Origin: Escherichia coli | GTDB taxonomy: Bacteria; Pseudomonadota; Gammaproteobacteria; Enterobacterales; Enterobacteriaceae | Length of the DNA: 64,000 bases | Reading direction: 5' to 3' (one strand) | NCBI RefSeq assembly: GCF_044324875.1 | Contig: NZ_CP172185.1 | Part shown: positions 11,088 through 28,695 of the stretch, piece after piece | How the letters are laid out: every line of letters starts with the position of its first letter | Numbering within the stretch: the stretch's first letter is position 1 | Made by a program: the position numbers and the translations under genes | The notes under the pieces: generated by a model | The model's input: only the letters and a program-made list of their open reading frames with translations | Database searches by the model: none | Told to the model about the DNA's origin: nothing

Positions 11088-12281
11088 TTATTTCGTTTGT
11101 ACGTTTTTCTCCATAAGTGAATCAATGTAATCAGCGTACCACTGCATCATTTCACGACGTCCATCGAGATACAGGGCATGATTATAGGTACCCCTGATGG
11201 AGTTTTTATCCACATGCGCTAACTGCATTTCAATCCAGGCAGAATTAAAGCCCTGTTCGTGCAGAATTGTGCTCATTGTGTGACGAAAACCATGGCCGGT
11301 TGCTCTGCCATCGTAACCGATGCGTTTTAGTACCATATTGATGCTGGCTTCACTCATCGGTTTGTTAACATCGCAACGTCCGGGGAATATAAGGCGATAC
11401 TGCCCGGTAAAACGATGCAATTCCTGCAGCAGTGAAATGGCCTGGCGTGACAGAGGAACAATATGATGCCTGCGCATTTTCATTCGCTCTTCAGGGATAT
11501 GCCAGAGTGCGTTGTCAGAATCAATTTCTGACCATTCGGCCAGCCGCAATTCAATCGTTCTGAGTCCGGTCAGCATCAGCAGGCTCGTCGCCATACGGGT
11601 GACAGGACTGCCATGATAGTCAGCGAGCTTCCGGAGAAAAACAGGAAGTTCATCCGCTCTCAGATGGGGAAAATGTGCGGTTTTTGGTGCCGCCAGCGTA
11701 CTGGTCAGTTCTGATGCAGGATTGACAGTGGCACGTCCTGTGGCAATGGCATAACGGAAAATCTGATTGCAGTATTGACGGACCTTGCGTAATTTTTCCA
11801 GAGAGCCACGTTTTTCAATACGACGCAAAATCTCCAGCATTTCCAGCGGGAGGATATCAGTCACGCTCCGGTTGCTCAGATACGGGAAAACGTCTTTATC
11901 CAGCGCTTCCAGTACGCTTCTGGCGTAACTGTCAGACCATGATAAAGATTTATGATGATGCCATTCCATTGCGAGAGCATGAAAGGTGTTGGTGACAGAG
12001 ATTTTCTGAGAGAGTTTTTCCCTTCGCTTCTTTTCACCGGGATCTCCACCCTCGGATATAATTTTTCGTGCATCGTCGCGTCTGGTTCTGGCTTCAGCAA
12101 GGGAGACGTCAGGATAGACGCCGAGGGACAGTTTTTTCTCCTTTCCTGCTGTTCTGTACTTAAGGCGCCAGTAGCGTGCTCCCGTGGTTTTTACCAGCAG
12201 ATATAAACCACGTTCATCAGAAAGTTTATAATCTTTGTCTTTAGGTCTTGCCGTTTCGACCTGTCTGGCTGTAAGTGCCAT
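11088..12281 (-). CDS. int: P4-type tyrosine integrase
   Basis: MALTARQVETARPKDKDYKLSDERGLYLLV...RYWRLKYR...KLSLGVYP N-terminal domain typical of P4/CP4-57 IntA integrases; RBS-supported ATG at 12281; adjacent to tRNA-derived att. Confidence 0.9.
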   Translation of the reverse strand: MALTARQVETARPKDKDYKLSDERGLYLLVKTTGARYWRLKYRTAGKEKKLSLGVYPDVSLAEARTRRDDARKIISEGGDPGEKKRREKLSQKISVTNTFHALAMEWHHHKSLSWSDSYARSVLEALDKDVFPYLSNRSVTDILPLEMLEILRRIEKRGSLEKLRKVRQYCNQIFRYAIATGRATVNPASELTSTLAAPKTAHFPHLRADELPVFLRKLADYHGSPVTRMATSLLMLTGLRTIELRLAEWSEIDSDNALWHIPEERMKMRRHHIVPLSRQAISLLQELHRFTGQYRLIFPGRCDVNKPMSEASINMVLKRIGYDGRATGHGFRHTMSTILHEQGFNSAWIEMQLAHVDKNSIRGTYNHALYLDGRREMMQWYADYIDSLMEKNVQTK

Positions 12282-12457
12282 ATGGGGGCCCCTTAAACTG
12301 ACCGAACACAATGAGCCCCCAAATGTGCCCCCATTTAATGCTTGATTCAGGGGGTGTTCAATAGAATTCGGTGGAGTTCAAAATGTCCGGAACGATTATA
12401 AATCAGTGATTATACATGAATTTCGTGGAGTGCGGGGGATGTGTGTAGAAGTGAAGG

Positions 12458-12558: not shown

Positions 12559-13437
12559 ATGAAAATACTGCCCGTTGTCTCCACAAAAGGTGGCGAAGGT
12601 AAATCAACACAATCCGCAAACCTGGCTGGTTTTCTCGCCGATGCAGGTATCCGTACCCTGCTGATTGACGGAGATCATGCTCAGCCCACGGCAAGCAACA
12701 TCTTTCCGCTGACATATGAAGCGTCAGCCGGTCTTTTTGAGTTGCTGATGCGCACGGCTGACCTCAGTCATCCCGATAACATCATTTCCCGCACGGCTAT
12801 CGACGGACTCGATCTGATAGTCTCCAATGACCCTCATGAGCAGTTAAAAACTGCGATGCTTCACGCCCCGGATGGTCGTCTGCGCCTCCGGAATGTCCTG
12901 CAGCATCCGCTTTTTCTGAACAACTACGATGTCATTGTAGTTGATTCTCAGGGAGCACGTTCTGTCATGCTCGAAATGATTGTGCTGTCGGCCACTGATT
13001 CGGTTGTCGGGATGGTCAATCCGGTACTCCCTGATGTGCGCGAGTTTATTCGGGGCACTGTCAATGTTATGGAGAACCTGCTGCCTTACCGGGAGCTGGG
13101 GATACCCCTGCCGAAAGTACGCACGCTGGTTAACTGCATGGATTATACGGCACTGGCCAGGAAGACGCTGGATGAGCTGGCCGGAATTATTCAGACCGGT
13201 CGTTACAGCAGACAGTTACCTGAAGGTGCGGTTTCCCTTCTTTCCACACAGATTTACGACCTGAATATTTACAAGCAGGGGCATGCGGCTGGTCAACCCG
13301 TACATCGTCTCGAAAAAGAATCCACACGTCGCAGTGATTCCGCGCTTGTCACGATGCACAGCCTGGCCTGTGAACTCTTTCCTGAGTGGAAACAGGCGTT
13401 TGACGGGCTGCTGGCGAACGGGGGAATACGTCAGTGA
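12559..13437 (+). CDS. parA: ParA/Soj-family partition ATPase of the ICE
   Basis: Deviant Walker A VVSTKGGEGKST; first gene after att, as in pKLC102/PAPI-1-type elements. Confidence 0.85.
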   Translation: MKILPVVSTKGGEGKSTQSANLAGFLADAGIRTLLIDGDHAQPTASNIFPLTYEASAGLFELLMRTADLSHPDNIISRTAIDGLDLIVSNDPHEQLKTAMLHAPDGRLRLRNVLQHPLFLNNYDVIVVDSQGARSVMLEMIVLSATDSVVGMVNPVLPDVREFIRGTVNVMENLLPYRELGIPLPKVRTLVNCMDYTALARKTLDELAGIIQTGRYSRQLPEGAVSLLSTQIYDLNIYKQGHAAGQPVHRLEKESTRRSDSALVTMHSLACELFPEWKQAFDGLLANGGIRQ

Positions 13438-14378: not shown

Positions 14379-14511
14379 ACTTACCGGTCGGAAAATGTAC
14401 AGAAAGTTATGGGCCTTTTATGCCCTGCAACTGTTCGTCCGGCACCCGTTTTCGTTTTTTTGCATGGTGGGTTTGCTGTGAAACAGGCTCCGTTTGCCCG
14501 GGAGGTGGCGT

Positions 14512-15900
14512 ATGTCTGAACGCTATATTCCACGCTCCGTTGATGCAGAGCAGGCCGTGCTGGGCGGCCTGATGCTCGATAATGAACGCTGGGATGAGGT
14601 GGTACTGATGCTCCGGGGGGAGGATTTTTCTCTGGCCGCACACCGGGTGATATTCCGCACCATGTCAGAGCTGGCAACCAGCGGTCAGCCGTTCGACCTC
14701 ATCACGCTGAGTGAGCATATTGAGAAAACAAACAATATTGAGGCACTGGGTGGTTTCGCTTATCTGGCTGAACTCAGCAAAAATACGCCTTCTGCAGCCA
14801 ATATTATCGCTTATGCCCGTATTGTTGCTGAAAAGAGCATGCTGCGTCAGTTGCAGGAGACGGGGAATGCGCTGATTACGGATGTGGCCGCACCGGATGC
14901 GACACCACGCACTGTTCTTGAATCCGCTGAACGTCGGCTCTTTTCACTTTCACAGACTGGCATGTTGCATGAGCGATGTGAAGTCAGTCTCACCTCGGCT
15001 ATGGAGCTGGCGCTGCGTCAACTGGAAGAGGGACTGAACGCCGGCGGGATGACGGGCACGCCCACGGGATTTGATGAACTGGATGAGATGACCTGTGGTC
15101 TGCAGCCCGGCGACCTCATTCTTCTGGCTGCACGCCCGTCTATGGGGAAAACAGCGCTGGGCCTTACCTTCTGTCTTAATGCCCTGTGTAACCGGACCGA
15201 TGAAACGGTATTTCTTTTCAGTATCGAAATGTCCCGGGAGCAGCTGATTCTGCGTGTCCTGTCAATGCTCTCCAGGGTGGAGCTGACACGTCTTCGCAGC
15301 AGCATGATGGATGATGAAGAGTGGGCGAGAGTCACGGCAACCATGGGACGCTTCATGAATGAAGCGTCATTCATCGGAGATGGAAACCGCCTGATAATTG
15401 ATGACACCTCCTTCCAGACGCCGTCATCGCTGCGTGCCAGCGCCCGTCGTTATGTCCGTCTGTATGGCAGACCTTCCCTGATAATGGTTGATTACCTCCA
15501 GCTGATTCGTTCTCCGGACCAGGAGAACCGAACGCAGGAAATTGCGGAAATATCCCGCGCCCTTAAGGCGTTAGGTAAAGAGCTGGGATGCCCGGTACTG
15601 GCACTGTCTCAGCTTAACCGTCAGGTGGAGCAGCGGGCGGATAAGCGCCCCAATAACGGTGACCTGCGTGATTCCGGGGCGCTGGAGCAGGATGCTGACC
15701 TCATTATGTTTATTTACCGTGATGAGGTTTATAACTCTGGCACGCTGGATAAGGGCGTTGCTGAAATCATTGTGAGCAAACAGCGGCAGGGGCCAACCGG
15801 AACGATACGGGTGAACTTCGACGGCCGCTACACCCTGTTTTCACCGTTTGAACGTGGATGGAATTTTGACCGTGCCGGAGGAAATGCGTATGTCAATTAA
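14512..15900 (+). CDS. dnaB: Replicative DNA helicase DnaB homologue
   Basis: GGAGG RBS; DnaB N-terminal domain (SVDAEQAVLGGLMLDN), Walker A ...AARPSMGKTALGLTF... Confidence 0.9.
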   Translation: MSERYIPRSVDAEQAVLGGLMLDNERWDEVVLMLRGEDFSLAAHRVIFRTMSELATSGQPFDLITLSEHIEKTNNIEALGGFAYLAELSKNTPSAANIIAYARIVAEKSMLRQLQETGNALITDVAAPDATPRTVLESAERRLFSLSQTGMLHERCEVSLTSAMELALRQLEEGLNAGGMTGTPTGFDELDEMTCGLQPGDLILLAARPSMGKTALGLTFCLNALCNRTDETVFLFSIEMSREQLILRVLSMLSRVELTRLRSSMMDDEEWARVTATMGRFMNEASFIGDGNRLIIDDTSFQTPSSLRASARRYVRLYGRPSLIMVDYLQLIRSPDQENRTQEIAEISRALKALGKELGCPVLALSQLNRQVEQRADKRPNNGDLRDSGALEQDADLIMFIYRDEVYNSGTLDKGVAEIIVSKQRQGPTGTIRVNFDGRYTLFSPFERGWNFDRAGGNAYVN

Positions 15901-17539
15901 ACGAAATCATTCCGTTGATCTGGGAGCTGCCATCATGCAACCGGGCCGTCAGACCAGCACGACGGGTAACGTGGTGGCGCTGGGGGAAACACCGATGATT
16001 CTGACGCTGGATCAACTGCGCCCCAACCCGGATAACCCGAGGACCACGCGTAATCCCCGGTACGACGATATTAAAAGTTCAATTTTCTCCCGTGGACTGG
16101 ATACGGTGCCCAAAGTCACCCGGATACCTGAGAGTGAGCCGGATATCTATATTTTCAGCGATGGTGGTAACACGCGATATCAGATCCTGAAAGAGCTGTG
16201 GGAGGAGACCGGCGATCAGCGTTTCTATCGTATTCATGTGCTTTTCAAGCCATGGCCGGGACGGCTTCAGTGCGTCATTGGTCACCTGGCTGAGAATGAA
16301 GTCAGGGGCGAACTGACGTTTATTGAAAAGGCCCGGGGTATCCATAACGCCCGGATGATTTATGAGGAGTCGATGCAGCGAACCGTGACGATCAGGGAAC
16401 TGGCGTCACTGCTGACGGATGAAGGACTTCCGGTAAGCCACTCATCTGTCAGCAGGATGGAGCATACTCTGAAATATCTGTATCCGTGGATCCCCGATCT
16501 TCTGGAATCAGGATTAGGAAGACCGCAGATCAATTCACTGTTGTCTCTCCGGCAGGATGCGGAACGCATCTGGGGACAGTTTGCGGTGGCAACAGAGAAC
16601 GGGGCGGATTTTGACCGCGTGTTTGGTGAATGCTGCAGCAAATTCAATTCACCGGAGCTCTGGTCACTGGAGATGTTCCGGGATGAGCTGATTGGTGATC
16701 TGCTGAAAGCGTTACCACATCCGGTGCTGGATTATGACCGCTGGTTGCTTGAACTGGATCCGCGGGAGCGTAACCGACGTCACCATTTTGGCGAACCTGA
16801 GCCGGTGCTCATTCCCGCAGACAGTGATGCGATGCCAGAGCCTGCGACTGACGGTGTGTCGGCAGTGACGGCGGAGAAGAACAGCGGAAGGGAGCAGTCT
16901 GTGATTTCCGCACCGGCTGACCATGACACAGTCATGAATACGGAGCAATCCCCGGCTGGAAAGGCGGAGAGTTCAGTTATCGAACAACGCGAAGAACGCC
17001 GTAGAAAGGAAGTCCAGCCGGATATGTATGGTGGTGAAGAAACATACAGCGGCGATTACGAAGAGGATGGCGATACCCGTGATGCTGCGGATCTGCCGGT
17101 AACGTCACCGGAAGAGGGGGCTCAGCAGAGCAGCGGTGAAATATTCAGTGAGCCGGTATTCAGTGTTGGTGAACTGGATGATATCGAATATCTGCAGAAT
17201 GAGGCATTTCACCTGGCATGGGAGCTGGCGTCACACACAGGCTGTGTCGATGAGCTGGCTATGGACAGGGAAAGCGAACTGTCTGCGGGATTCGGCGCGG
17301 CAGAGGCGAATTGTTCTCCGGTCATGGCATTTCTTGTCAGGCTGACCGGTGAGGAGGTTCTGCGGGTTAATCCGGTTTCTCTTGATGCACTGATGATTGG
17401 TGGCAGTACTGAAGAAGAGCCACCACTGCTGGATGATGAGCATGCCGGGAAGTTACTCCGTCTGCTTGGGGTGTTGCGTCGTCTGCGGGGGCTGCAGCGC
17501 CAGGTGGAAGAAGAGAACGTGGAGGGGCGTGATGAATAA
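15890..17539 (+). CDS. parB: ParB-like nuclease-domain protein of the ICE
   Basis: ...LTLDQLRPNPDNPR... ParB N-terminal motif; acidic C-terminal half; position after dnaB conserved in this ICE family. Confidence 0.8.
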   Translation: MSIKRNHSVDLGAAIMQPGRQTSTTGNVVALGETPMILTLDQLRPNPDNPRTTRNPRYDDIKSSIFSRGLDTVPKVTRIPESEPDIYIFSDGGNTRYQILKELWEETGDQRFYRIHVLFKPWPGRLQCVIGHLAENEVRGELTFIEKARGIHNARMIYEESMQRTVTIRELASLLTDEGLPVSHSSVSRMEHTLKYLYPWIPDLLESGLGRPQINSLLSLRQDAERIWGQFAVATENGADFDRVFGECCSKFNSPELWSLEMFRDELIGDLLKALPHPVLDYDRWLLELDPRERNRRHHFGEPEPVLIPADSDAMPEPATDGVSAVTAEKNSGREQSVISAPADHDTVMNTEQSPAGKAESSVIEQREERRRKEVQPDMYGGEETYSGDYEEDGDTRDAADLPVTSPEEGAQQSSGEIFSEPVFSVGELDDIEYLQNEAFHLAWELASHTGCVDELAMDRESELSAGFGAAEANCSPVMAFLVRLTGEEVLRVNPVSLDALMIGGSTEEEPPLLDDEHAGKLLRLLGVLRRLRGLQRQVEEENVEGRDE

Positions 17540-18263
17540 TGATGCAGCACGTCAGGAGCAACTGATTAAACGGATAAGAAAACTGCTGGCGCTGAGCCGG
17601 AATAACAGTAATCCACATGAGGCAGGTCAGGCTCTTTCCCGCGCACAGGCGCTGATGCGGAAGCATGGTATCACCGAACTGGATGCTGATATTTCGGTGA
17701 TAAAAACCTCATCATCAAAGGGAGCACCGTCAGAAGCGGAAAAAGTTCCGGTATGGATGGGGCGTCTTATGAATGTTGTTGCAGGGGCATTCGGATGCCA
17801 TACATACCTGGACTGGCGTATCACAACCGGAGGATACTGGCGGCGGATTGTCACATTTTATGGTTTTGGGGAGCGTCCGGTTGTGGCTGCGTATGCCTTT
17901 GATGTTCTCTGCCGGCAGATGCAAAAGGCGACAAAAGAGTATCTCTCAACCCAGAGCCGGAAATTAAAACACTCAACCCGTCGTGCAAGAGCTGCGATGT
18001 TTCGTGACGGCTGGGTTTATGGGGTGCGTGATGTGGTGGATGCATTCCGGCTCACGGAAGATGAGACGCGTGTAATGAATACGTGGCTGCAGAACCAGCA
18101 ATTTGAGGGAATGGTCGTCTTCCGGGAGGTAAAGGACTGCCATGGCGGTGACCATGCACGCTGGCAGGGATACAACGAGGGGAAAAAGGCAACGCTGAAT
18201 CACGGTGTTGGTTCCCGGGATCTGAGACCGGAAAGCCTGATATCGGGCGGAGGTGAGGTATGA
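17532..18263 (+). CDS. DUF2786-like hypothetical ICE protein
   Basis: RBS-supported ATG 17532; N-terminus IKRIRKLLALSRNNSNPHEAGQALSRAQALMRKHGITE resembles the DUF2786 motif (recalled). Confidence 0.6.
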   Translation: MNNDAARQEQLIKRIRKLLALSRNNSNPHEAGQALSRAQALMRKHGITELDADISVIKTSSSKGAPSEAEKVPVWMGRLMNVVAGAFGCHTYLDWRITTGGYWRRIVTFYGFGERPVVAAYAFDVLCRQMQKATKEYLSTQSRKLKHSTRRARAAMFRDGWVYGVRDVVDAFRLTEDETRVMNTWLQNQQFEGMVVFREVKDCHGGDHARWQGYNEGKKATLNHGVGSRDLRPESLISGGGEV

Positions 18264-18838
18264 GTAACAACTTATCACAGGCCACCAACGGGCTGTTGAT
18301 GCAACTGGTGATGGATCTCAAGAGTGGCTATCTGCGGCGATGTGAAGCGCTGGGGCTTTCCCGGGAAGAAATGCAGATGCTGCAGGGGCTGAGCATTGAA
18401 GAAATTCACTATCTGTCAAATTCAGAAGTGTCGGTGCTGCGGCTGGATATTAACCACAACAATCTTGTGCGCATGTTGCAGCAGGCGCGGACTGAACAGA
18501 AACGTCTGCAGCGAATCGATCGCGCTCTGGCGCTGGGTGGGTCTATCGAACTCATGGCGTTTTATTTTGGTCTTTCCAGCGTGGATGTGGCTGCGCGGCG
18601 TCGTATCTCCGGTATTGATGTTCGTCCCGGAAGGGGGATCACCCTGAGTGACGATGAGAATTCTGAACTCTGGCGGTTGTGGCAGAAAGCCGGGATCAAT
18701 GATGTGGAGAGTGTGGATGGGCTGGATGTCATGATGCTTTGTGCTGAACAGATGAACATTCCACTGACGGCCATCTGGCATGCCGTCAGAGGGTGGCATA
18801 CAACCGGAAATCCGGATCAGGTAAGGAGTGCGTCATGA
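18260..18838 (+). CDS. Hypothetical ICE regulatory-region protein
   Basis: 192-aa ORF, start overlaps upstream stop; no recognised motif. Confidence 0.55.
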   Translation: MSNNLSQATNGLLMQLVMDLKSGYLRRCEALGLSREEMQMLQGLSIEEIHYLSNSEVSVLRLDINHNNLVRMLQQARTEQKRLQRIDRALALGGSIELMAFYFGLSSVDVAARRRISGIDVRPGRGITLSDDENSELWRLWQKAGINDVESVDGLDVMMLCAEQMNIPLTAIWHAVRGWHTTGNPDQVRSAS

Positions 18839-21943: not shown

Positions 21944-22203
21944 GGACTGTGCCGGAATGATTGTCTGTTCCGAAGCTGCTGAGCCGCGACATAAATTTTT
22001 TATGTTGCGGTGAAGCAGCCGACAAACGAAGAGCGTCAGCGTATCAACAGTTAAGGAAAATATCTTCTGAAGCCGGACGCGACAGTCAGTCCGGTGGTGC
22101 TCGTGTGGTGAAGTGTTTAGCCTGCATCTTTGACAGGGTTCAGTTATAAGCATTTCGGAAACCGTTCCCCGGGGCAGTCTGCCGGGATTTAAGGAGTTTA
22201 TTT

Positions 22204-23469
22204 ATGGCGCTACCTGCAGAAAGCCTTATTGCGCATACGCTCAGAAAAATGAAGGCCAGCATGGCAGAGAAAGCCAGTCGTGAGGACGGGAGGATACGCA
22301 GTGGGCTGTTGTTTACCGGCAATGTTCACGATTCGTATCCCCGCAGGCTGTTGCTGGATACGCGCCTTTCTCCCCTTGATAAAACTGCGTGGATGATGAT
22401 TCGTCTGCATGCCCTGAATAATGAGGGCGCAGTATTTCCGACGTACGATGAACTGCAGTTACAACTGGCATCTCCCGGGCGCGGGAAGGCGTCCCGTGAA
22501 ACAGTGAGCCGGGTGCTGACAATGCTGCGGCTTACGGGCTGGCTGAGTCTGTGTAAGCGGGTCAGGGATGAAAAAGGGCGGGTCCGGGGGAATATTTACG
22601 CCCTGCATGATGAGCCACTGACCTGCTGTGATGCAGAAAAGTTTGACCCACGATACCTGGATATGGTTCTGGATACTGTGAGCAGGAGCCGGAACAAGAC
22701 AATCCGGCACACAGCCAGTGAAGTGCTCAGTGATATCAAAAATGAGCCCGGTATGCGGCATTACCACAGCCATATCACTCTGTTTGAATCGCGTATGGGG
22801 GCAGCACAGACACCTGGTCAGCTGGCGGCGCGTCAGCGGGTGAACCCGATGGTGAATGAAAACACAGGCAGAGAGAGTGGTTCGGATTCCGTACATACCC
22901 CTGCACCTGTCGTGCAGGTAAACGAACTCAGTGATCCATTAATCGAACTCAGTGAAAAACAGGAAATGAGCCCACTCAGTTCGGATTCCGTACTGCCTGA
23001 AAAATCAGCAACTTATTACTCGGTTCGGAAACCGAACAATTACGTACGTAATATCACACACAGTGTGATTAAAAATACGTACGTATTGCCTGAGTCGGTG
23101 AAATCGCAAATCAGCGCAGAAGACACGGACATGCTGACAAAACAACTGCAGGCGTTGCCGGAAGAACTGGCAGGTAGTGTGCTGAGCAGCCTGTTACAGA
23201 TGCTCAGCAAAAACACGCTCCAGAATCCGGTTGGCTGGATGCTGGCTGTGATGAAACTTGCGCGTGAGGGACGTTTTAATACGCCGGATATGTCCGTGCA
23301 TGAATCCCGGTCGCCAGCCCGTGCACCATATCAGCCTGTGTACAACCGTGATGAACGTGAACGTCGTCGCGGGAAAGTGGCGTCACCTGAAACGGTGAGC
23401 AACATTGTCGCAGAATTCCGGGCCAGCCTGAAACGTGCAAATGCTGCCCGTCTGGCGGCGCGTGTGTGA
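22204..23469 (+). CDS. STY4528-type pathogenicity-island replication protein (putative replication initiator)
   Basis: 421 aa, immediately upstream of the iteron array; family assignment recalled from SPI-7-type islands. Confidence 0.65.
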   Translation: MALPAESLIAHTLRKMKASMAEKASREDGRIRSGLLFTGNVHDSYPRRLLLDTRLSPLDKTAWMMIRLHALNNEGAVFPTYDELQLQLASPGRGKASRETVSRVLTMLRLTGWLSLCKRVRDEKGRVRGNIYALHDEPLTCCDAEKFDPRYLDMVLDTVSRSRNKTIRHTASEVLSDIKNEPGMRHYHSHITLFESRMGAAQTPGQLAARQRVNPMVNENTGRESGSDSVHTPAPVVQVNELSDPLIELSEKQEMSPLSSDSVLPEKSATYYSVRKPNNYVRNITHSVIKNTYVLPESVKSQISAEDTDMLTKQLQALPEELAGSVLSSLLQMLSKNTLQNPVGWMLAVMKLAREGRFNTPDMSVHESRSPARAPYQPVYNRDERERRRGKVASPETVSNIVAEFRASLKRANAARLAARV

Positions 23470-23483
23470 TGGTTAAAAGTCAA

Positions 23484-23808
23484 TCTATGGCGCTACTGGC
23501 ACCATAGTACAAAAAATAAGCGATGGTGCCACTGGCACCATAGTACAAAAAATGAGCGATGGTGCCACTGGCACCACGGTATAAAAAATGAGCGATGGTG
23601 CCACTGGCACCACGGTATAAAAAATGAGCGATGGTGACGCTGGCACCATAGTACAAAAAATAAGCGATGGTGCCACTGGCACCACGGTACAAAAAATAAG
23701 CGATGGTGCCACTGGCACCATAGTACAAAAAATGAGCGATGGTGCCACTGGCACCATAGTACAAAAAATGAGCGATGGTGCCACTGGCACCATAGTATAA
23801 AAACGAAC
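23484..23808. repeat. Iteron array: 9 tandem copies of a 36-bp unit (GCGATGGTGCCACTGGCACCATAGTACAAAAAATGA)
   Basis: Unit starts at 23520, 23556, 23592, 23628, 23664, 23700, 23736, 23772 (exact 36-bp period) plus a partial first copy; only minor variants (cacGgtaTaa, gtgaCGctgg). Confidence 0.9.
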
Positions 23809-23935
23809 GCAATTCATACGCTCAATCCCGTTAATTTTAAAAGGTTCAAATCTGTTTTCCTGTTGTTGTTAATCCGGTTCTTTCTGACGATCTCACACTC
23901 AACTGGTGTTATTTCTGGTACTGAGTGGAGGTCAT

Positions 23936-24616
23936 ATGACTGATGAGAAAAAGACTGAACCTGGCGTGTTAAAAAGCTCCCTGACAATTAATATTCACAC
24001 TTATTACGCTATTCGGTTGTGGAACGGTCGCAAGCCTGAGACTGGTGCTGATAAGTCGGAACGTCGGCGCAGGATCATTGGCATGCCCGGGGTTATTTCC
24101 CGTGCGGGTATCGCAACAAAAGATTCTGAGAACAATAATCCGTGGGCGGATGAATTTTTGTTCAGCCTTGAGGAAAAGCTGAATCACTCAAAGCAAAAGA
24201 TTAATGACCTGGTTGAGCAGTTAAATGATGTTTTACGGGATGTGCCAGGGGATATTTGTATTTCTGAAATATCATCAACCAGTCCAGTAAATATTGGTGT
24301 GCACAGTCGTTCACCTCTTGGTTACAAATGTGTATGGCTGCTTGTCGGGTACGATGAACTGGTGCTTAAAGCCTTTCAGGCTTTCCACTATGGACTGATT
24401 GCCCGATCACGTCGTGATGAAATACTTAATGCCGGAGGGCATGCTGTACGTCAGATTTGTGCTCTTGCCCAGGGATATAAAACTGTACCTGCAACGAGGG
24501 GTGATATTTCTTCTGGCTCACAAAAAGGAAAAGATGCGATCAGCCGCTATGGCATGCCTGATCCTGACATCCTTACCGGGAAGAAACGGTCCTCCTTTTC
24601 TGCACCGCTGAAATAA
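23936..24616 (+). CDS. Hypothetical ICE protein
   Basis: GGAGG RBS, ATG 23936; position upstream of topB conserved in this ICE family (recalled). Confidence 0.55.
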   Translation: MTDEKKTEPGVLKSSLTINIHTYYAIRLWNGRKPETGADKSERRRRIIGMPGVISRAGIATKDSENNNPWADEFLFSLEEKLNHSKQKINDLVEQLNDVLRDVPGDICISEISSTSPVNIGVHSRSPLGYKCVWLLVGYDELVLKAFQAFHYGLIARSRRDEILNAGGHAVRQICALAQGYKTVPATRGDISSGSQKGKDAISRYGMPDPDILTGKKRSSFSAPLK

Positions 24617-24628
24617 TCTGGTAACTCT

Positions 24629-26647
24629 ATGCGTCTCTATTTATGTGAAAAACCTTCACAGGCCGCTGATATAGCCAGAGTACTTGGGGCTGCCAGACGT
24701 GGTGATGGTGCGATTGAAGGTAAGGACTTTGTTGTGACCTGGGCCTTTGGTCACTTGCTGGAGCAGGCGCCACCGGAGGCGTATGGTGAACAGTTTGGCA
24801 GCCCCTGGAAAATTGACGTTTTGCCGGTCTTTCCTAAACAGTGGAAGATGGTGGTGAAGGATAATGTCGGGAAGCAGTTTAATGTGATCAGCCGCCTTCT
24901 CCGTAAGACTGATGAAGTGGTGATTGCCACTGACGCCGATCGTGAAGGCGAAATTATCGCAAGGGAACTGCTGGATTATTGTGGTTATACCGGCGTTGTG
25001 CGCCGTCTCTGGCTGTCCGCACTGGATGAGAGCAGTATCAGGGAGGCGCTGGACAGAATACTGCCCGGAGAGGAGACCGAGAAGTTATATGAAGCCGGTA
25101 AGGGACGCAGCCGGGCTGACTGGCTGACGGGGATCAACCTGACGCGTCTGTATACCCTGAAAGCCAGGGGGTGTGGTGTGTCCGGCGTCCTCTCTGTTGG
25201 CAGGGTGCAGACGCCCACGCTTGCGATGGTGGTCAGACGGGACGCGGAAATAAAAAATTTTATTCCGGTACCTTACTGGCAACTGTATCTCTGGCTGGAG
25301 AAGGATAATGTGCGTTTTCGTACCACCTGGATTGCGGCAGCGCAGTACTGCGATACTGAAAAACGGTGTGTGAATGTGCAGGCGGCAACAGCCGTCCTGT
25401 CACAGTGTCGTCAGGCAGGTGTTGCTGTTGTCAGGGATGTCAGCAGCAGACGGGAGAAAAAGCAGCCTCCGCTGTGTTTTTCGCTCGGAACGTTGCAGGA
25501 GGTCTGTTCGCGCAAATTTGGCCTCGGAGCGCAGGCTGTTCTTGATATAGCCCAGTCGCTGTACGAAAAGCATAAGGCGACAACATATCCGCGTACAGAT
25601 TGCGGTTATCTGCCGGTATCAATGCACAAAGAAGTGCCTGACGTACTGGCGGCGCTGGAAAAAACCGATCCGGATATTGCCACGGAGCTGGCAAAACTCA
25701 GTCCTGATATTGTGTCGGGGATCTGGAACGACAGGAAGATCACCGCGCATCATGCGATAATCCCCACCCGTCAGCCGTTTAATATTGTGGCGCTGAGTGA
25801 TAATGAGCTTAAGGTGTACCGGTTAATTCGTCAGCATTATCTGGCTCAGTTTTTACCCATGCAGGAGTCGGATGTCACAGAGGCCACATTTCTTGTTGCG
25901 GGGCAGTTGTTCGGAACGCGGGGACGGGTGGAGGTTGTCAGGGGATGGCGTGCGCTTTTTGTGTCAGATTCGGCGGGAGAGGAAGAGGATGTTGCAGACG
26001 ATGAGCAGGCGATGCCCCTTCCCGTACTGGCAAAAGGTGATGAATGTCGTCCTGCTGAAGCTGAACTCAAAGAGATGCAGACCACGCCACCACGTCATTA
26101 TACGGAAGGCACGCTGATTGCGGCGATGAAAAATGCTGCGGGTATGGTGAGTGATCCGGCACTGAAAAAAGTGTTACGCGAAAATGCGGGGCTGGGTACT
26201 GAAGCGACCCGCGCAGAAATACTGGAAACGTTGTTCACCCGCAAATATATCGAGAAGCAGGGTAAGCATATCCGTGCCACGCAACTGGGGGCGGAGCTGA
26301 TAGCGGGATTGCCGGAGGCGCTGACCAGTCCGGGAACAACGGCGCTGTGGGAACAGGCTCTGGATGATATTGCACAGGGTAAACTGTCACTGTCGTCATT
26401 TATGGAGAAGCAGAAACAGTGGCTTAACCACCTGGTGGCCGGTGCAAGGCAGCAGCCACTGCAGATCACGGCACCGGTTACGCCTGCATGCCCTCTTTGC
26501 AGGGGAAGAATGCGGAAGGTGAAGATGAAAAGCGGGAAAGGGGAATTCTGGAGTTGTCAGCGTTATCCGGAGTGTAAGGGAGTGATTTCAGAGCAGAAAC
26601 CGACATCCGGGAAACGGGGCGGCAGAAAAATTAAAAAGCGTGGATGA
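24629..26647 (+). CDS. topB: DNA topoisomerase III
   Basis: Toprim N-terminus MRLYLCEKPSQAADIARVLG...; type IA topoisomerase length; C-terminal zinc-ribbon cysteines (CPLC...CQRYPEC). Confidence 0.9.
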   Translation: MRLYLCEKPSQAADIARVLGAARRGDGAIEGKDFVVTWAFGHLLEQAPPEAYGEQFGSPWKIDVLPVFPKQWKMVVKDNVGKQFNVISRLLRKTDEVVIATDADREGEIIARELLDYCGYTGVVRRLWLSALDESSIREALDRILPGEETEKLYEAGKGRSRADWLTGINLTRLYTLKARGCGVSGVLSVGRVQTPTLAMVVRRDAEIKNFIPVPYWQLYLWLEKDNVRFRTTWIAAAQYCDTEKRCVNVQAATAVLSQCRQAGVAVVRDVSSRREKKQPPLCFSLGTLQEVCSRKFGLGAQAVLDIAQSLYEKHKATTYPRTDCGYLPVSMHKEVPDVLAALEKTDPDIATELAKLSPDIVSGIWNDRKITAHHAIIPTRQPFNIVALSDNELKVYRLIRQHYLAQFLPMQESDVTEATFLVAGQLFGTRGRVEVVRGWRALFVSDSAGEEEDVADDEQAMPLPVLAKGDECRPAEAELKEMQTTPPRHYTEGTLIAAMKNAAGMVSDPALKKVLRENAGLGTEATRAEILETLFTRKYIEKQGKHIRATQLGAELIAGLPEALTSPGTTALWEQALDDIAQGKLSLSSFMEKQKQWLNHLVAGARQQPLQITAPVTPACPLCRGRMRKVKMKSGKGEFWSCQRYPECKGVISEQKPTSGKRGGRKIKKRG

Positions 26648-26924: not shown

Positions 26925-27238
26925 CTTGTCGCTCCGGCGACCACCAATGTTCCATAGTGGCCTGTGAGGAACGCCTTCGGGTGGCCCATGTCGCTTCAGC
27001 GACCACCAATGTTCCATGTGGCCTGTGAGGAACGCCTTCGGGTGGCCCACGTCGCTCCGGCGACCACCAATGCTTCATCTGACCTGTGAGGAGCGCCTTC
27101 GGGTGGTCAGTTTTACACCTCCTGAGCCTGAAAGGAGCTGTGCGTACTGAAGGGATATATTCCCGGAAGTACGGGCAAATCTGCACACCTTTGAGAGCAG
27201 ATGTCACTGCGGTTTTCCGTGATGATGAAGGCTTTTTT
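26925..27238 (+). repeat. Structured repeat element, copy 1 (3 tandem ~60-bp subunits plus ~130-bp conserved tail ending in a T-run)
   Basis: Subunits GTCGCTCCGGCGACCACCAATGTTCCAT(a)GTGGCCTGTGAGGAACGCCTTCGGGTGGCCCA(t/c); tail ...TTTTACACCTCCTGAGCCTGAAAGGAGCTG...GATGATGAAGGCTTTTTTT; near-identical copies at 60942 and 63735. Confidence 0.85.
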
Positions 27239-27357: not shown

Positions 27358-27822
27358 ATGTCTGCAACTAACTCTACTTCTGCAAAAACTGAATACTTCA
27401 ACCTGACCATGAAAGGTCTTGGGTATCTCAGCAATGTACGTCAGGTTAACCATCAGAACGGTTCGTTCCTCAGCTGTGTGATTAACGCACTGAGTGGACC
27501 AACGGACAATCCGTCCTATACGCGTTTTGATGTTACGGTTGCCGGTAAAGAGGCGACCACCCTGATCTCCCGCTGCCAGAAAGCAGTGGATGAGGACCGC
27601 AAGGTACTGCTTGGTTTTACGTTAAGCAACCTTGCCACCGACATTTTCACCCTGAACAAGGGGGAGCATGCCGGTGAGCAACGCGTCAGCCTGAAAGCCC
27701 GCCTGATCAAGGTGGACTGGATAAAAATAGGCCAGGAGCAGGTCTATAAGGCTGAAAAAGCGGAGTCCCAGCCACCGAGCCATGGCACCACAAAACGTGA
27801 ATACGCAGAAGACTCCTTCTGA
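27358..27822 (+). CDS. STY4534/DUF3577-like ICE protein
   Basis: 154-aa ORF between topB and ssb; family assignment recalled. Confidence 0.6.
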   Translation: MSATNSTSAKTEYFNLTMKGLGYLSNVRQVNHQNGSFLSCVINALSGPTDNPSYTRFDVTVAGKEATTLISRCQKAVDEDRKVLLGFTLSNLATDIFTLNKGEHAGEQRVSLKARLIKVDWIKIGQEQVYKAEKAESQPPSHGTTKREYAEDSF

Positions 27823-27921
27823 TCGCGTATTTTTCTCACTGCCTCCCTGATAAAGAAAACAGACCACCATCAGGGAGGTCTGTTTTCTTATTGTGTTTAC
27901 TGAACTTTAAGGAAACAAATT

Positions 27922-28125
27922 ATGACTTCTACAAACGGTATTCTCGCAGCTGCGGCAGGTTATACATTACCTCTGGAAATACTCAAAAGTGGGCGCGGAT
28001 ATTATATTGGCACTCAGTGTTGTGAGGGGCCGGTATCCCGTGAATCAGAAGAGTATTTCAAAAAATATGAGCAGGCTGAGCGGGCGCTGAAAAATGGCAC
28101 CTGGACACAACGTCATGCCTGGTAA
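27922..28125 (+). CDS. Small hypothetical protein
   Basis: 67-aa ORF with RBS-like AAGGAAA upstream. Confidence 0.4.
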   Translation: MTSTNGILAAAAGYTLPLEILKSGRGYYIGTQCCEGPVSRESEEYFKKYEQAERALKNGTWTQRHAW

Positions 28126-28137
28126 TGAGGAGGTGCT

Positions 28138-28695
28138 ATGGCTTCACGTGGCGTAAACAAAGTTATCCTGATAGGACATCTGGGGCAGGATCCGGATATC
28201 CGGTATTTCCCCAATGGCGGTGGCGTTGTGGCGAATCTGTCACTGGCGACCAGCGACACCTGGCGGGATAAACAGAGCGGTGAAATGAAGGAAGTCACTG
28301 AATGGCACCGCGTTGTTCTCTATGGAAAACTGGCTGAAGTTGCCTGCGAGTACCTGCATAAGGGGTCGCAGGTGTATATAGAAGGCCAGCTTAAAACCCG
28401 TAAATGGTTTGACCAGCAGAATGGTGTGGACCGTTATTCAACTGAGGTTGTTGTGGGCGTGAATGGTGTCATGCAGATGCTGGGTTCATCGCGTCAGCAG
28501 GGCGCTTCCGGTAATGGTGCTTCAGCACCGGCACAAGGGGGCCAGGGACAGCCGCCGAAGACGACCGGACAGACTGGTCGTGCTACCCGGACAACTTCAA
28601 CAGGTAATGGTGCTCCACCTGTGGACTTTGACGATGATATCCCCTTTATGGGGATCGGGTATGGCATGGAACGGCGAATTATTCATGCCATGTAA
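28138..28695 (+). CDS. ssb: Single-stranded DNA-binding protein with 15-aa extension past the DDDIPF tip
   Basis: OB-fold N-terminus [28 protein letters not shown]..., Gly/Gln-rich linker, ...DFDDDIPF followed by [15 protein letters not shown] before the stop. Confidence 0.9.

Follow-up and report, generated by a model that had tools for sequence, protein, structure and literature searches.

In PFGI-1, the region upstream of the PFL_4669 gene has been described as a putative vegetative origin of replication (oriV), containing four palindromes of 23 bp (CTGAGTTCGGAATCCGAACTCAGT) together with four repeats of 46 bp that each include an inverted repeat; the same element is stated to encode no Rep protein (PMC2647930). 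The oriV of ICEHin1056 was assigned on the basis of "iteron-like" repeats, and the same was said of pKLC102, SPI-7 and PAPI-1 (PMC2258188). Since the literature on PFGI-1 and ICEHin1056 already calls this region a putative oriV, an iteron-based origin is the standing annotation of the element. Palindromic sites are also known from ICEclc, an integrative conjugative element (ICE), where BisD, a ParB-like clamp that binds cytidine triphosphate (CTP), is loaded at the palindromes called bisS and from there spreads along the direction of transcription (PMC12409273); together with BisC, a DUF2857 protein, it activates the transfer promoters of ICEclc (PMC12409273, PMC7423338). The present analysis concerns an array of 36-bp tandem repeats that follows a STY4528-family gene in a 64,000-nucleotide stretch of Escherichia coli DNA (assembly GCF_044324875.1, contig NZ_CP172185.1), here called the window. 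A sequence-only reading of this stretch had taken the array for the iterons of the adjacent protein, and thus for a candidate origin of an episomal form of the island; comparison with related islands suggests that it is probably (estimated probability about 0.78) a set of cognate sites of the ParB-family protein encoded by the island itself, similar to sopC, parS and bisS.

The array and its counterparts in related islands

Tandem Repeats Finder places the array at 23487-23803, with a period of 36, 8.8 copies, 92% matches, 0% indels and a score of 522, and thus the nine exactly phased direct repeats announced by the sequence-only reading are real. The distance of 15 bp from the preceding stop codon given there was also essentially right: the array begins 17 nucleotides (nt) past the stop codon of the STY4528-family gene, or 15 nt past it when counted from the extended palindrome CTATGG... 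at 23485. The palindromic nature of the units was absent from that reading, and it alters the interpretation of the array. The features required for the following discussion are:

23487-23803, no strand assigned: 36-bp array of nine palindrome-plus-spacer units, proposed loading sites of the island ParB-family protein (Tandem Repeats Finder, register listing, family survey, covariation)
22204-23469, plus strand: STY4528-family protein of 421 amino acids (aa), ATG start and TGA stop; the earlier assignment of this open reading frame (ORF) to STY4528-type replication proteins is borne out by a match over the full length to NCBIfam NF040582 "STY4528 family pathogenicity island replication protein" (E 9.7e-116)
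15890-17539, plus strand: ParB-family protein of 549 aa (NCBIfam TIGR03764 "ICE_PFGI_1_parB", motifs, specificity columns)
23936-24616, plus strand: PFL_4669 family protein, Pfam PF08900 "Transcriptional regulator AcaB"

When set in register, the array consists of nine units. The 17-mer TGGTGCCACTGGCACCA is perfect in seven of them and degenerate in units 1 and 5; unit 9 is without most of its spacer. The 17-mer is a palindrome of dimer size with an 8+1+8 organization, TGGTGCCA-C-TGGCACCA, which extends in the array units to a perfect 19-bp palindrome, ATGGTGCCA-C-TGGCACCAT; the remainder of each 36-bp unit is a 17-bp A-rich spacer, AGTACAAAAAATGAGCG. Because no copy of the core 17-mer was found outside the array within the 64-kb window, even with up to three mismatches, the array is far beyond what chance would produce. 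A search of the array region against Rfam gave nothing relevant. A minus-strand ORF of 110 aa that runs through the array was rejected as a gene, as it consists of a low-complexity 12-residue repeat and has counterparts on either strand elsewhere.

Elements of the same kind are widespread. About 70 of 93 loci, from many genera, have 1-26 palindromes of the form TG[G/T/C]TG-N7-CA[C/A/G]CA after the STY4528 stop codon, mostly spaced by exactly 36 bp, else by about 105-108 bp, and usually with TTAAAAA in the spacer; many islands have a single palindrome. In Enterobacterales islands, in ICEHin1056 and in pKLC102 the element is placed between the STY4528 and the PFL_4669 (AcaB-type) genes, and ICEHin1056 has three copies of TGTAAAGGGGCTTTACA spaced 36 bp apart. 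Natural variants of the 17-mer include those with half-sites TGGTGGCA.., TGTTGCCA.. and TGTTGGCA.., and a Providencia variant, TGTTTCCACTGGAAACA, resembles canonical parS. Copy number varies also among near-identical E. coli islands, with 8.8 copies in the window, 15.8 in TUM1886 and 24.8 in CM2. In several genomes two or three such islands occur together, in most cases with unlike palindromes, but these pairs are too few for a test against random expectation. A period of 104-108 bp, close to three 36-bp units, was observed in locus L008 (E. coli Br_112, 14494-15308) and in loci L018, L022, L031, L046 and L071; in these islands just one palindrome remains in each period, while at the two other places the sequence has decayed or been replaced.

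Covariation of the palindrome with the ParB-family protein

The ParB-family gene lies 6 kb upstream of the array and its product matches NCBIfam TIGR03764 with E 2.5e-113. Like BisD and KorB, the protein contains putative CTP-binding boxes, namely Box I (LRPNPDNPR), Box II (GGNTR, of the GxxR type) and Box III (ENEVR). A helix-turn-helix-like stretch (IRELASLL-TDEGLPV-SHSSVSRMEH, about residues 165-195) comes next, and the remainder comprises an acidic linker and a C-terminal domain; a DUF2857 gene is found downstream, and by motifs and gene order this architecture may resemble that of BisD. In ParB and Noc, specificity depends on the recognition helix and on a further helix some 28 residues downstream, and the two read different bases within the half-site (PMC7383237); the layout of the recognition elements is the same as that formed here by H184 and R211/N215.

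Recombinant islands of E. coli indicate which protein follows the palindrome. The SF-088 island has 94-100% identity with the window in ParA, DnaB, ParB, DUF2786, DUF2857, STY4528 (97%), TopB, STY4534 and SSB, while its PFL_4669 is 48% identical and its array palindrome, TGTTGGCA-G-TGCCAACA, is unlike that of the window. Since the SF-088 STY4528 is 97% identical and yet the palindrome differs, STY4528 does not appear to set the specificity of the sites; indeed, STY4528 proteins with 97-99% identity adjoin different palindromes. Conversely, 21 of the 34 differences between the ParB proteins of the window and of SF-088 cluster at residues 153-216. Strains YZLc1-3 and EC554 share with SF-088 both PFL_4669 (WP_001696681.1) and the spacer; each of their 26 palindromes is TGTTGCCA-G-TGGCAACA, with the inner bases swapped in comparison to SF-088 (GCCA versus GGCA), and their ParB differs from that of SF-088 at positions 211 and 215. 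Thus an identical PFL_4669 adjoins arrays with different inner bases, which argues that this protein does not set them.

Between E. coli islands PFL_4669 and the array are exchanged as one cassette, which extends from the STY4528 stop codon to the topB start; the PFL_4669 gene products of 23936-24616 in the window and of 15150-15875 in locus L006 have 48% identity only, in two islands with 94-100% identity elsewhere.

When ParB from 13 E. coli loci is aligned beside the palindromes, the types of ParB segment match each of the five observed combinations of outer-base and inner-base type:

Outer base 3 is G: ParB residues ..QR.VTIRELA..TDEGLPV[S/N]H..SRMEH
Outer base 3 is T: ParB residues ..SKSVSMRELSSLLTEQGLPVDASSISRMEN
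Outer base 3 is C: ParB residues ..GRTVSLRELADLLTHEGLPIHNSTISRMED
Inner base 6 is C: ParB residues GLGR[P/H]Q.[N/T]
Inner base 6 is G: ParB residues G[L/M]GSPQVR

Columns that perfectly partition the palindrome types were counted in the same loci over ten proteins, with about 1,480 variable columns. The inner base is perfectly partitioned by R211 and N215 of ParB only, the outer base by six ParB columns, namely Q163, I168, D177, S183, H184 and H192; these eight positions are taken as the specificity columns of the protein. Proteins other than ParB and PFL_4669 have no such column, including none of the 216 variable columns of STY4528.

A family-wide association analysis was performed with bias-corrected single-column scores for nine proteins over about 65 loci. 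The outer base is best predicted by H184 of ParB (0.55), followed by I168 of ParB (0.34), and the best column of any other protein reaches 0.28. When the alignment is sorted by half-site, residue-base rules can be read: GGCA goes with G-[S/A/T/G]-P-Q-[I/V]-R, GCCA or GACA with G-R-P-Q, GCG with S-R-x-Q and GCCC with G-[R/K]-H-Q, while an outer C goes with [H/D]-N-S.

A further comparison is provided by pKLC102, where the "oriV" is flanked by the STY4528 and PFL_4669 homologues and built from 15.2 copies of a GC-rich 57-bp unit, every one of which includes exactly TGGTGCCACTGGCACCA, the palindrome of the window. The STY4528 proteins of the two elements are only about 30% identical and the ParB proteins about 36% overall; however, pKLC102 ParB shares the signature of the specificity columns, with I168, D177, S183 and H184 as well as a basic residue at 211, a combination that among E. 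coli and Enterobacterales loci occurs with the TGG-type palindrome only. At the level of sequence comparison, pKLC102 confirms out of sample the predicted code between ParB and its sites.

The assignment of the array to the ParB-family protein thus rests mainly on the recombinant E. coli islands, on the modular match at two positions and on the pKLC102 check. Several features expected of a ParB-centromere pair were found together: palindromic sites of dimer size, a protein with Boxes I-III and a helix-turn-helix, a ParA partner and, by comparison, matched specificity. The array is best read as serving in partition and/or in the activation of transfer genes. In the proposed mechanism, one ParB dimer would bind each palindrome via its helix-turn-helix, with the recognition helix from S183-H184 reading the outer bases and a second element about 27 residues downstream (R211, N215) reading the inner ones. 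By analogy with ParB, KorB and BisD, CTP-bound dimers would then close into clamps at the array and spread onto the flanking DNA; together with ParA, the clamp complex could segregate or stabilise the excised circular island, and together with the DUF2857 (BisC-type) protein it could switch on the rightward transfer genes.

Several points weigh against this assignment. All of its support is comparative, and the association scores are inflated by the shared ancestry of the loci. The family-wide signal is weaker for the inner base, whose best predictor, R211 of ParB, scores 0.34, with other proteins reaching up to 0.30. In E. coli the outer base is also perfectly partitioned by seven scattered columns of PFL_4669, so that a second protein could bind the array; this covariation may reflect either hitch-hiking of an adjacent cassette or a real second interaction. 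A Pfam search of the ParB-family protein found no ParB domain and phmmer found no match in PDB; a profile of 27 members matched KorB (8qa8, E 0.005) and Caulobacter ParB (6t1f, E 0.09), weakly and over Boxes I-II. The bisS sequence of ICEclc, GAGCTATCCCCnGGGGATAGCTC, has no match in the 64-kb window with up to three mismatches; in ICEclc it occurs as two single palindromes inside inrR and ssb, whereas here a different 17-mer is found in an intergenic array of 9-26 copies. Finally, an array bound by ParB could still adjoin or overlap an origin.

Alternative explanations and the STY4528 gene

In an iteron-type vegetative origin, STY4528 would act as the initiator, binding the 36-bp repeats and opening the adjacent DNA. 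The tandem repeats indeed lie directly after the gene for a DnaD/RepA_N-like winged-helix protein; the island encodes its own DnaB helicase, SSB, TopB and ParA, the homologous region is named oriV in pKLC102, PFGI-1 and ICEHin1056, and the STY4528 gene is present in 35 PLSDB plasmid records. To this extent the sequence-only reading stands, as does its premise of episomal forms, since replication or existence of pKLC102-type elements as plasmids is reported in the literature. Its attribution of the repeats to the adjacent protein is not supported, however: STY4528 has no column that tracks the palindrome, nearly identical STY4528 proteins adjoin different palindromes, and the distant pKLC102 protein adjoins an identical one. 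The sites, moreover, are perfect palindromes whose number can fall to one. A consensus scan of 22000-24700 found no DnaA box of the TTATNCACA type except one inside topB, at 24644; the 132-bp 3' flank of the array has 40% GC, compared to 50.5% for the window, with no marked AT-rich unwinding region, and neither GC nor AT skew has an inflection at the array. As far as the papers on PFGI-1 and ICEHin1056 go, the oriV label appears to be based on sequence features only. A complete island backbone, with integrases, is found in Pantoea agglomerans pNBBC01-4 (NZ_CP099732.1; loci L099/L100), a circular "plasmid" record of 71.6 kb, which in addition has a conventional replication initiation gene distinct from the backbone, together with a TrfB-like gene and another ParA; this is a weak argument against plasmid-type maintenance by the backbone alone in that case. 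Overall, an iteron origin is unlikely.

Somewhat less probable still is that the array works as an operator or titration array for the AcaB-type PFL_4669 protein, which would control its own promoter or the topB operon. The gene product is a full-length match to Pfam PF08900 (E 2.6e-74), and AcaB is a DNA-binding, ribbon-helix-helix-like activator; the array is located upstream of the gene, both are swapped as a cassette in SF-088, and the outer base is tracked by the seven columns mentioned above, a covariation for which adjacency by itself would suffice. Besides the identical WP_001696681.1 proteins beside arrays of differing inner bases, no PFL_4669 column tracks the inner base in the 13 E. 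coli loci, pKLC102 PFL_4669 has two of the five "G-type" residues despite the identical palindrome, and in several E. coli islands a mipA/ompV gene separates the array from PFL_4669, with the array remaining beside STY4528. Sequence comparison of PFL_4669 with PDB gave spurious ABC-transporter matches alone, and a sigma-70 scan of 22000-24700 found no promoter.

It is very improbable that the array has no protein-specific role, as hairpin- or terminator-like or slippage-prone repeats or as a real gene for a repeat protein: on the minus strand each unit looks like a hairpin with a T-run after it, "hypothetical protein" ORFs are annotated over such arrays in RefSeq, ORFs of 110 aa span the array and copy number varies among near-identical islands, but 6 nt separate stem and T-run, the annotated low-complexity ORFs are on differing strands between islands, and position and 36-bp phasing are kept from Haemophilus to Escherichia, with a palindrome that changes in step with a distant protein.

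The STY4528 gene itself contains a second set of palindromes. With up to three mismatches, GTTCGGAWWCCGAAC was matched 273 times over 111 kb of STY4528 gene sequence and 6 times over 1.56 Mb of flanking DNA, an enrichment of about 640-fold over 90+ loci; the copies, three to four per gene, are located at nt 650-830, in the region coding for the linker. Their reading frames are 1,1,0 in E. coli and 2,1,1,0 in pKLC102 and, because the copies are in different frames, the conservation is at the DNA level. In the window these elements are:

22880-23087, no strand assigned: internal STY4528-gene palindromes, three copies of GTTCGGAWWCCG(A/T)AC at 22880, 22979 and 23023, then TCACACACAGTGTGA in the AT-rich palindrome 23043-23087

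The last element corresponds to a second conserved palindrome, TCACACnnnGTGTGA, which follows the three internal copies. An AlphaFold model of STY4528 obtained from a 51-sequence alignment has a predicted local distance difference test score (pLDDT) of 77, while the single-sequence model was uninformative (pLDDT 44); it includes a confident winged helix at 57-134, helices to 212, a disordered linker at 222-290 and a helical C-terminal domain at 297-354. The predicted fold models as a DnaD/RepA_N-like winged helix; in Pfam no RepA_N match was found, and DnaD_N only with i-E 0.27. A similar organization is known for RepA_N of pSK41, whose winged helix binds four Rep boxes central in the rep gene, in DNA for a dispensable linker (PMC5703833): both genes have repeated boxes in linker-coding DNA and encode an N-terminal DnaD-like winged helix. 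STY4528 differs in that it has no RepA_N match in Pfam, is found in a Gram-negative host and has palindromic boxes.

The internal cluster may thus be a putative internal origin or a set of STY4528 binding sites and, if the island has a vegetative origin of its own, it would be a better candidate than the array. The "first half" of the PFGI-1 oriV is the same element as these internal palindromes. In ICEclc, the candidate "bisS-3" inside orf96323 did not recruit BisD (PMC12409273); it resembles the internal STY4528-gene palindromes, and from this motif orf96323 is presumably a STY4528 homologue. A broader proposal can be put forward tentatively, as possible but short of probable: that the "oriV" element of pKLC102, PFGI-1 and ICEHin1056, so labelled since the 2000s and cited for SPI-7 too, is not an origin but a site, present in many copies, at which a BisD/KorB-like ParB clamp is loaded, with at least ten variant pairs and a readable two-segment code, and that the island origin, if any, lies inside the STY4528 gene and is RepA_N-like, an arrangement not previously described for Gram-negative elements.

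Island context and comparison with known systems

The module that contains the array is 99.6-100% identical to a chromosomal island of E. coli TUM1886. Its genes are in the order ParA, DnaB-PI, ParB-family protein, DUF2786, DUF2857, small genes, STY4528, array, PFL_4669 and TopB, followed by STY4534, SSB, PilL and then TraD with type IV secretion genes; this order is kept in 80 Enterobacterales loci that a scan of genomes recovered, and likewise in pKLC102 and ICEHin1056. The remaining genes of the module considered here are:

12559-13437, plus strand: ParA (Soj-type) ATPase, probable partner of the ParB-family protein in partition (as annotated by RefSeq at the collinear locus L001)
14512-15900, plus strand: SPI-7-type island replicative DNA helicase (DnaB-PI)
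18260-18838, plus strand: DUF2857 protein, of the family of BisC of ICEclc, the co-activator of BisD (RefSeq annotation of the collinear locus L001; PMC7423338)
24629-26647, plus strand: DNA topoisomerase III (TopB)
27358-28695, plus strand: STY4534-family protein (27358-27822) and SSB (28138-28695)

An integrase gene (11088-12311) precedes the island ParA; well upstream of it, at 1302-1424, tandem repeats of 23/47 bp (GGATGCCAAACTGTGATCG...) are present in 2.4-4.3 copies. Repeats of 61 bp, detected by Tandem Repeats Finder at 26927-27233, 60945-61117 and 63740-63911, correspond to the Rfam STAXI RNA motif (RF01728), with four matches above the gathering score; the first STAXI pair is found between topB and the STY4534 gene, and an EFASI RNA (RF02957) at 61642-61764, near the other STAXI copies. 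At 58034-58152 the heptamer TGCTTGT forms a perfect run of 17 copies (Tandem Repeats Finder score 238), a type of repeat able to shift reading frames or promoter spacing.

Islands of this type bear genes for virulence and resistance in Salmonella Typhi, Pseudomonas aeruginosa, Haemophilus and E. coli, and how they persist after excision and switch on their transfer is only partly known. Re-assignment of the "oriV" repeats to ParB provides a directly testable model, in which the 17-bp site and the specificity residues are specified and specificity variants occur in nature, and moves the search for an origin to a short conserved stretch within the STY4528 gene. The variant pairs of ParB and site could explain the compatibility of co-resident islands and could serve as orthogonal pairs for DNA labelling.

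The array is proposed to be the counterpart, in the SPI-7/pKLC102 clade, of sopC of F, of plasmid and chromosomal parS, of the OB sites of RK2 and of bisS of ICEclc. The sopC centromere of F consists of 12 tandem repeats of 43 bp. Both arrays are made of tandem direct repeats with one short inverted repeat each, bound in F by a dimer of the ParB-family protein SopB; a ParA partner is encoded on the same element, and repeat number is not critical. Differently from F, the unit here is of 36 bp, and the array is 6 kb away from the parB gene and not right after the operon; furthermore, the ParB-family protein of the window has an additional acidic linker and C-terminal domain, as well as a DUF2857 partner.

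KorB of RK2 is likewise a CTP-dependent clamp of the ParB family, which acts at palindromic sites both in partition and, with a partner protein, in transcription regulation, and it is the best PDB match of the ICE ParB profile. However, the OB sites are dispersed single palindromes, and KorB represses and does not activate. ICEclc belongs to the same wider ICE family: its ParB-like BisD has GxxR and ENxxR boxes and is followed by the DUF2857 gene for BisC, and its sites are odd-length palindromes to the right of a STY4528-type gene, upstream of a long run of rightward transfer genes. Finally, the "oriV" of pKLC102 (16 x 57 bp), PFGI-1 and ICEHin1056 is the same genetic element, in the same position between the STY4528 and PFL_4669 homologues, with an identical 17-bp palindrome in pKLC102 and the 36-bp spacing in ICEHin1056; the difference is of interpretation only, an origin in the literature and, by covariation, probable ParB sites here.

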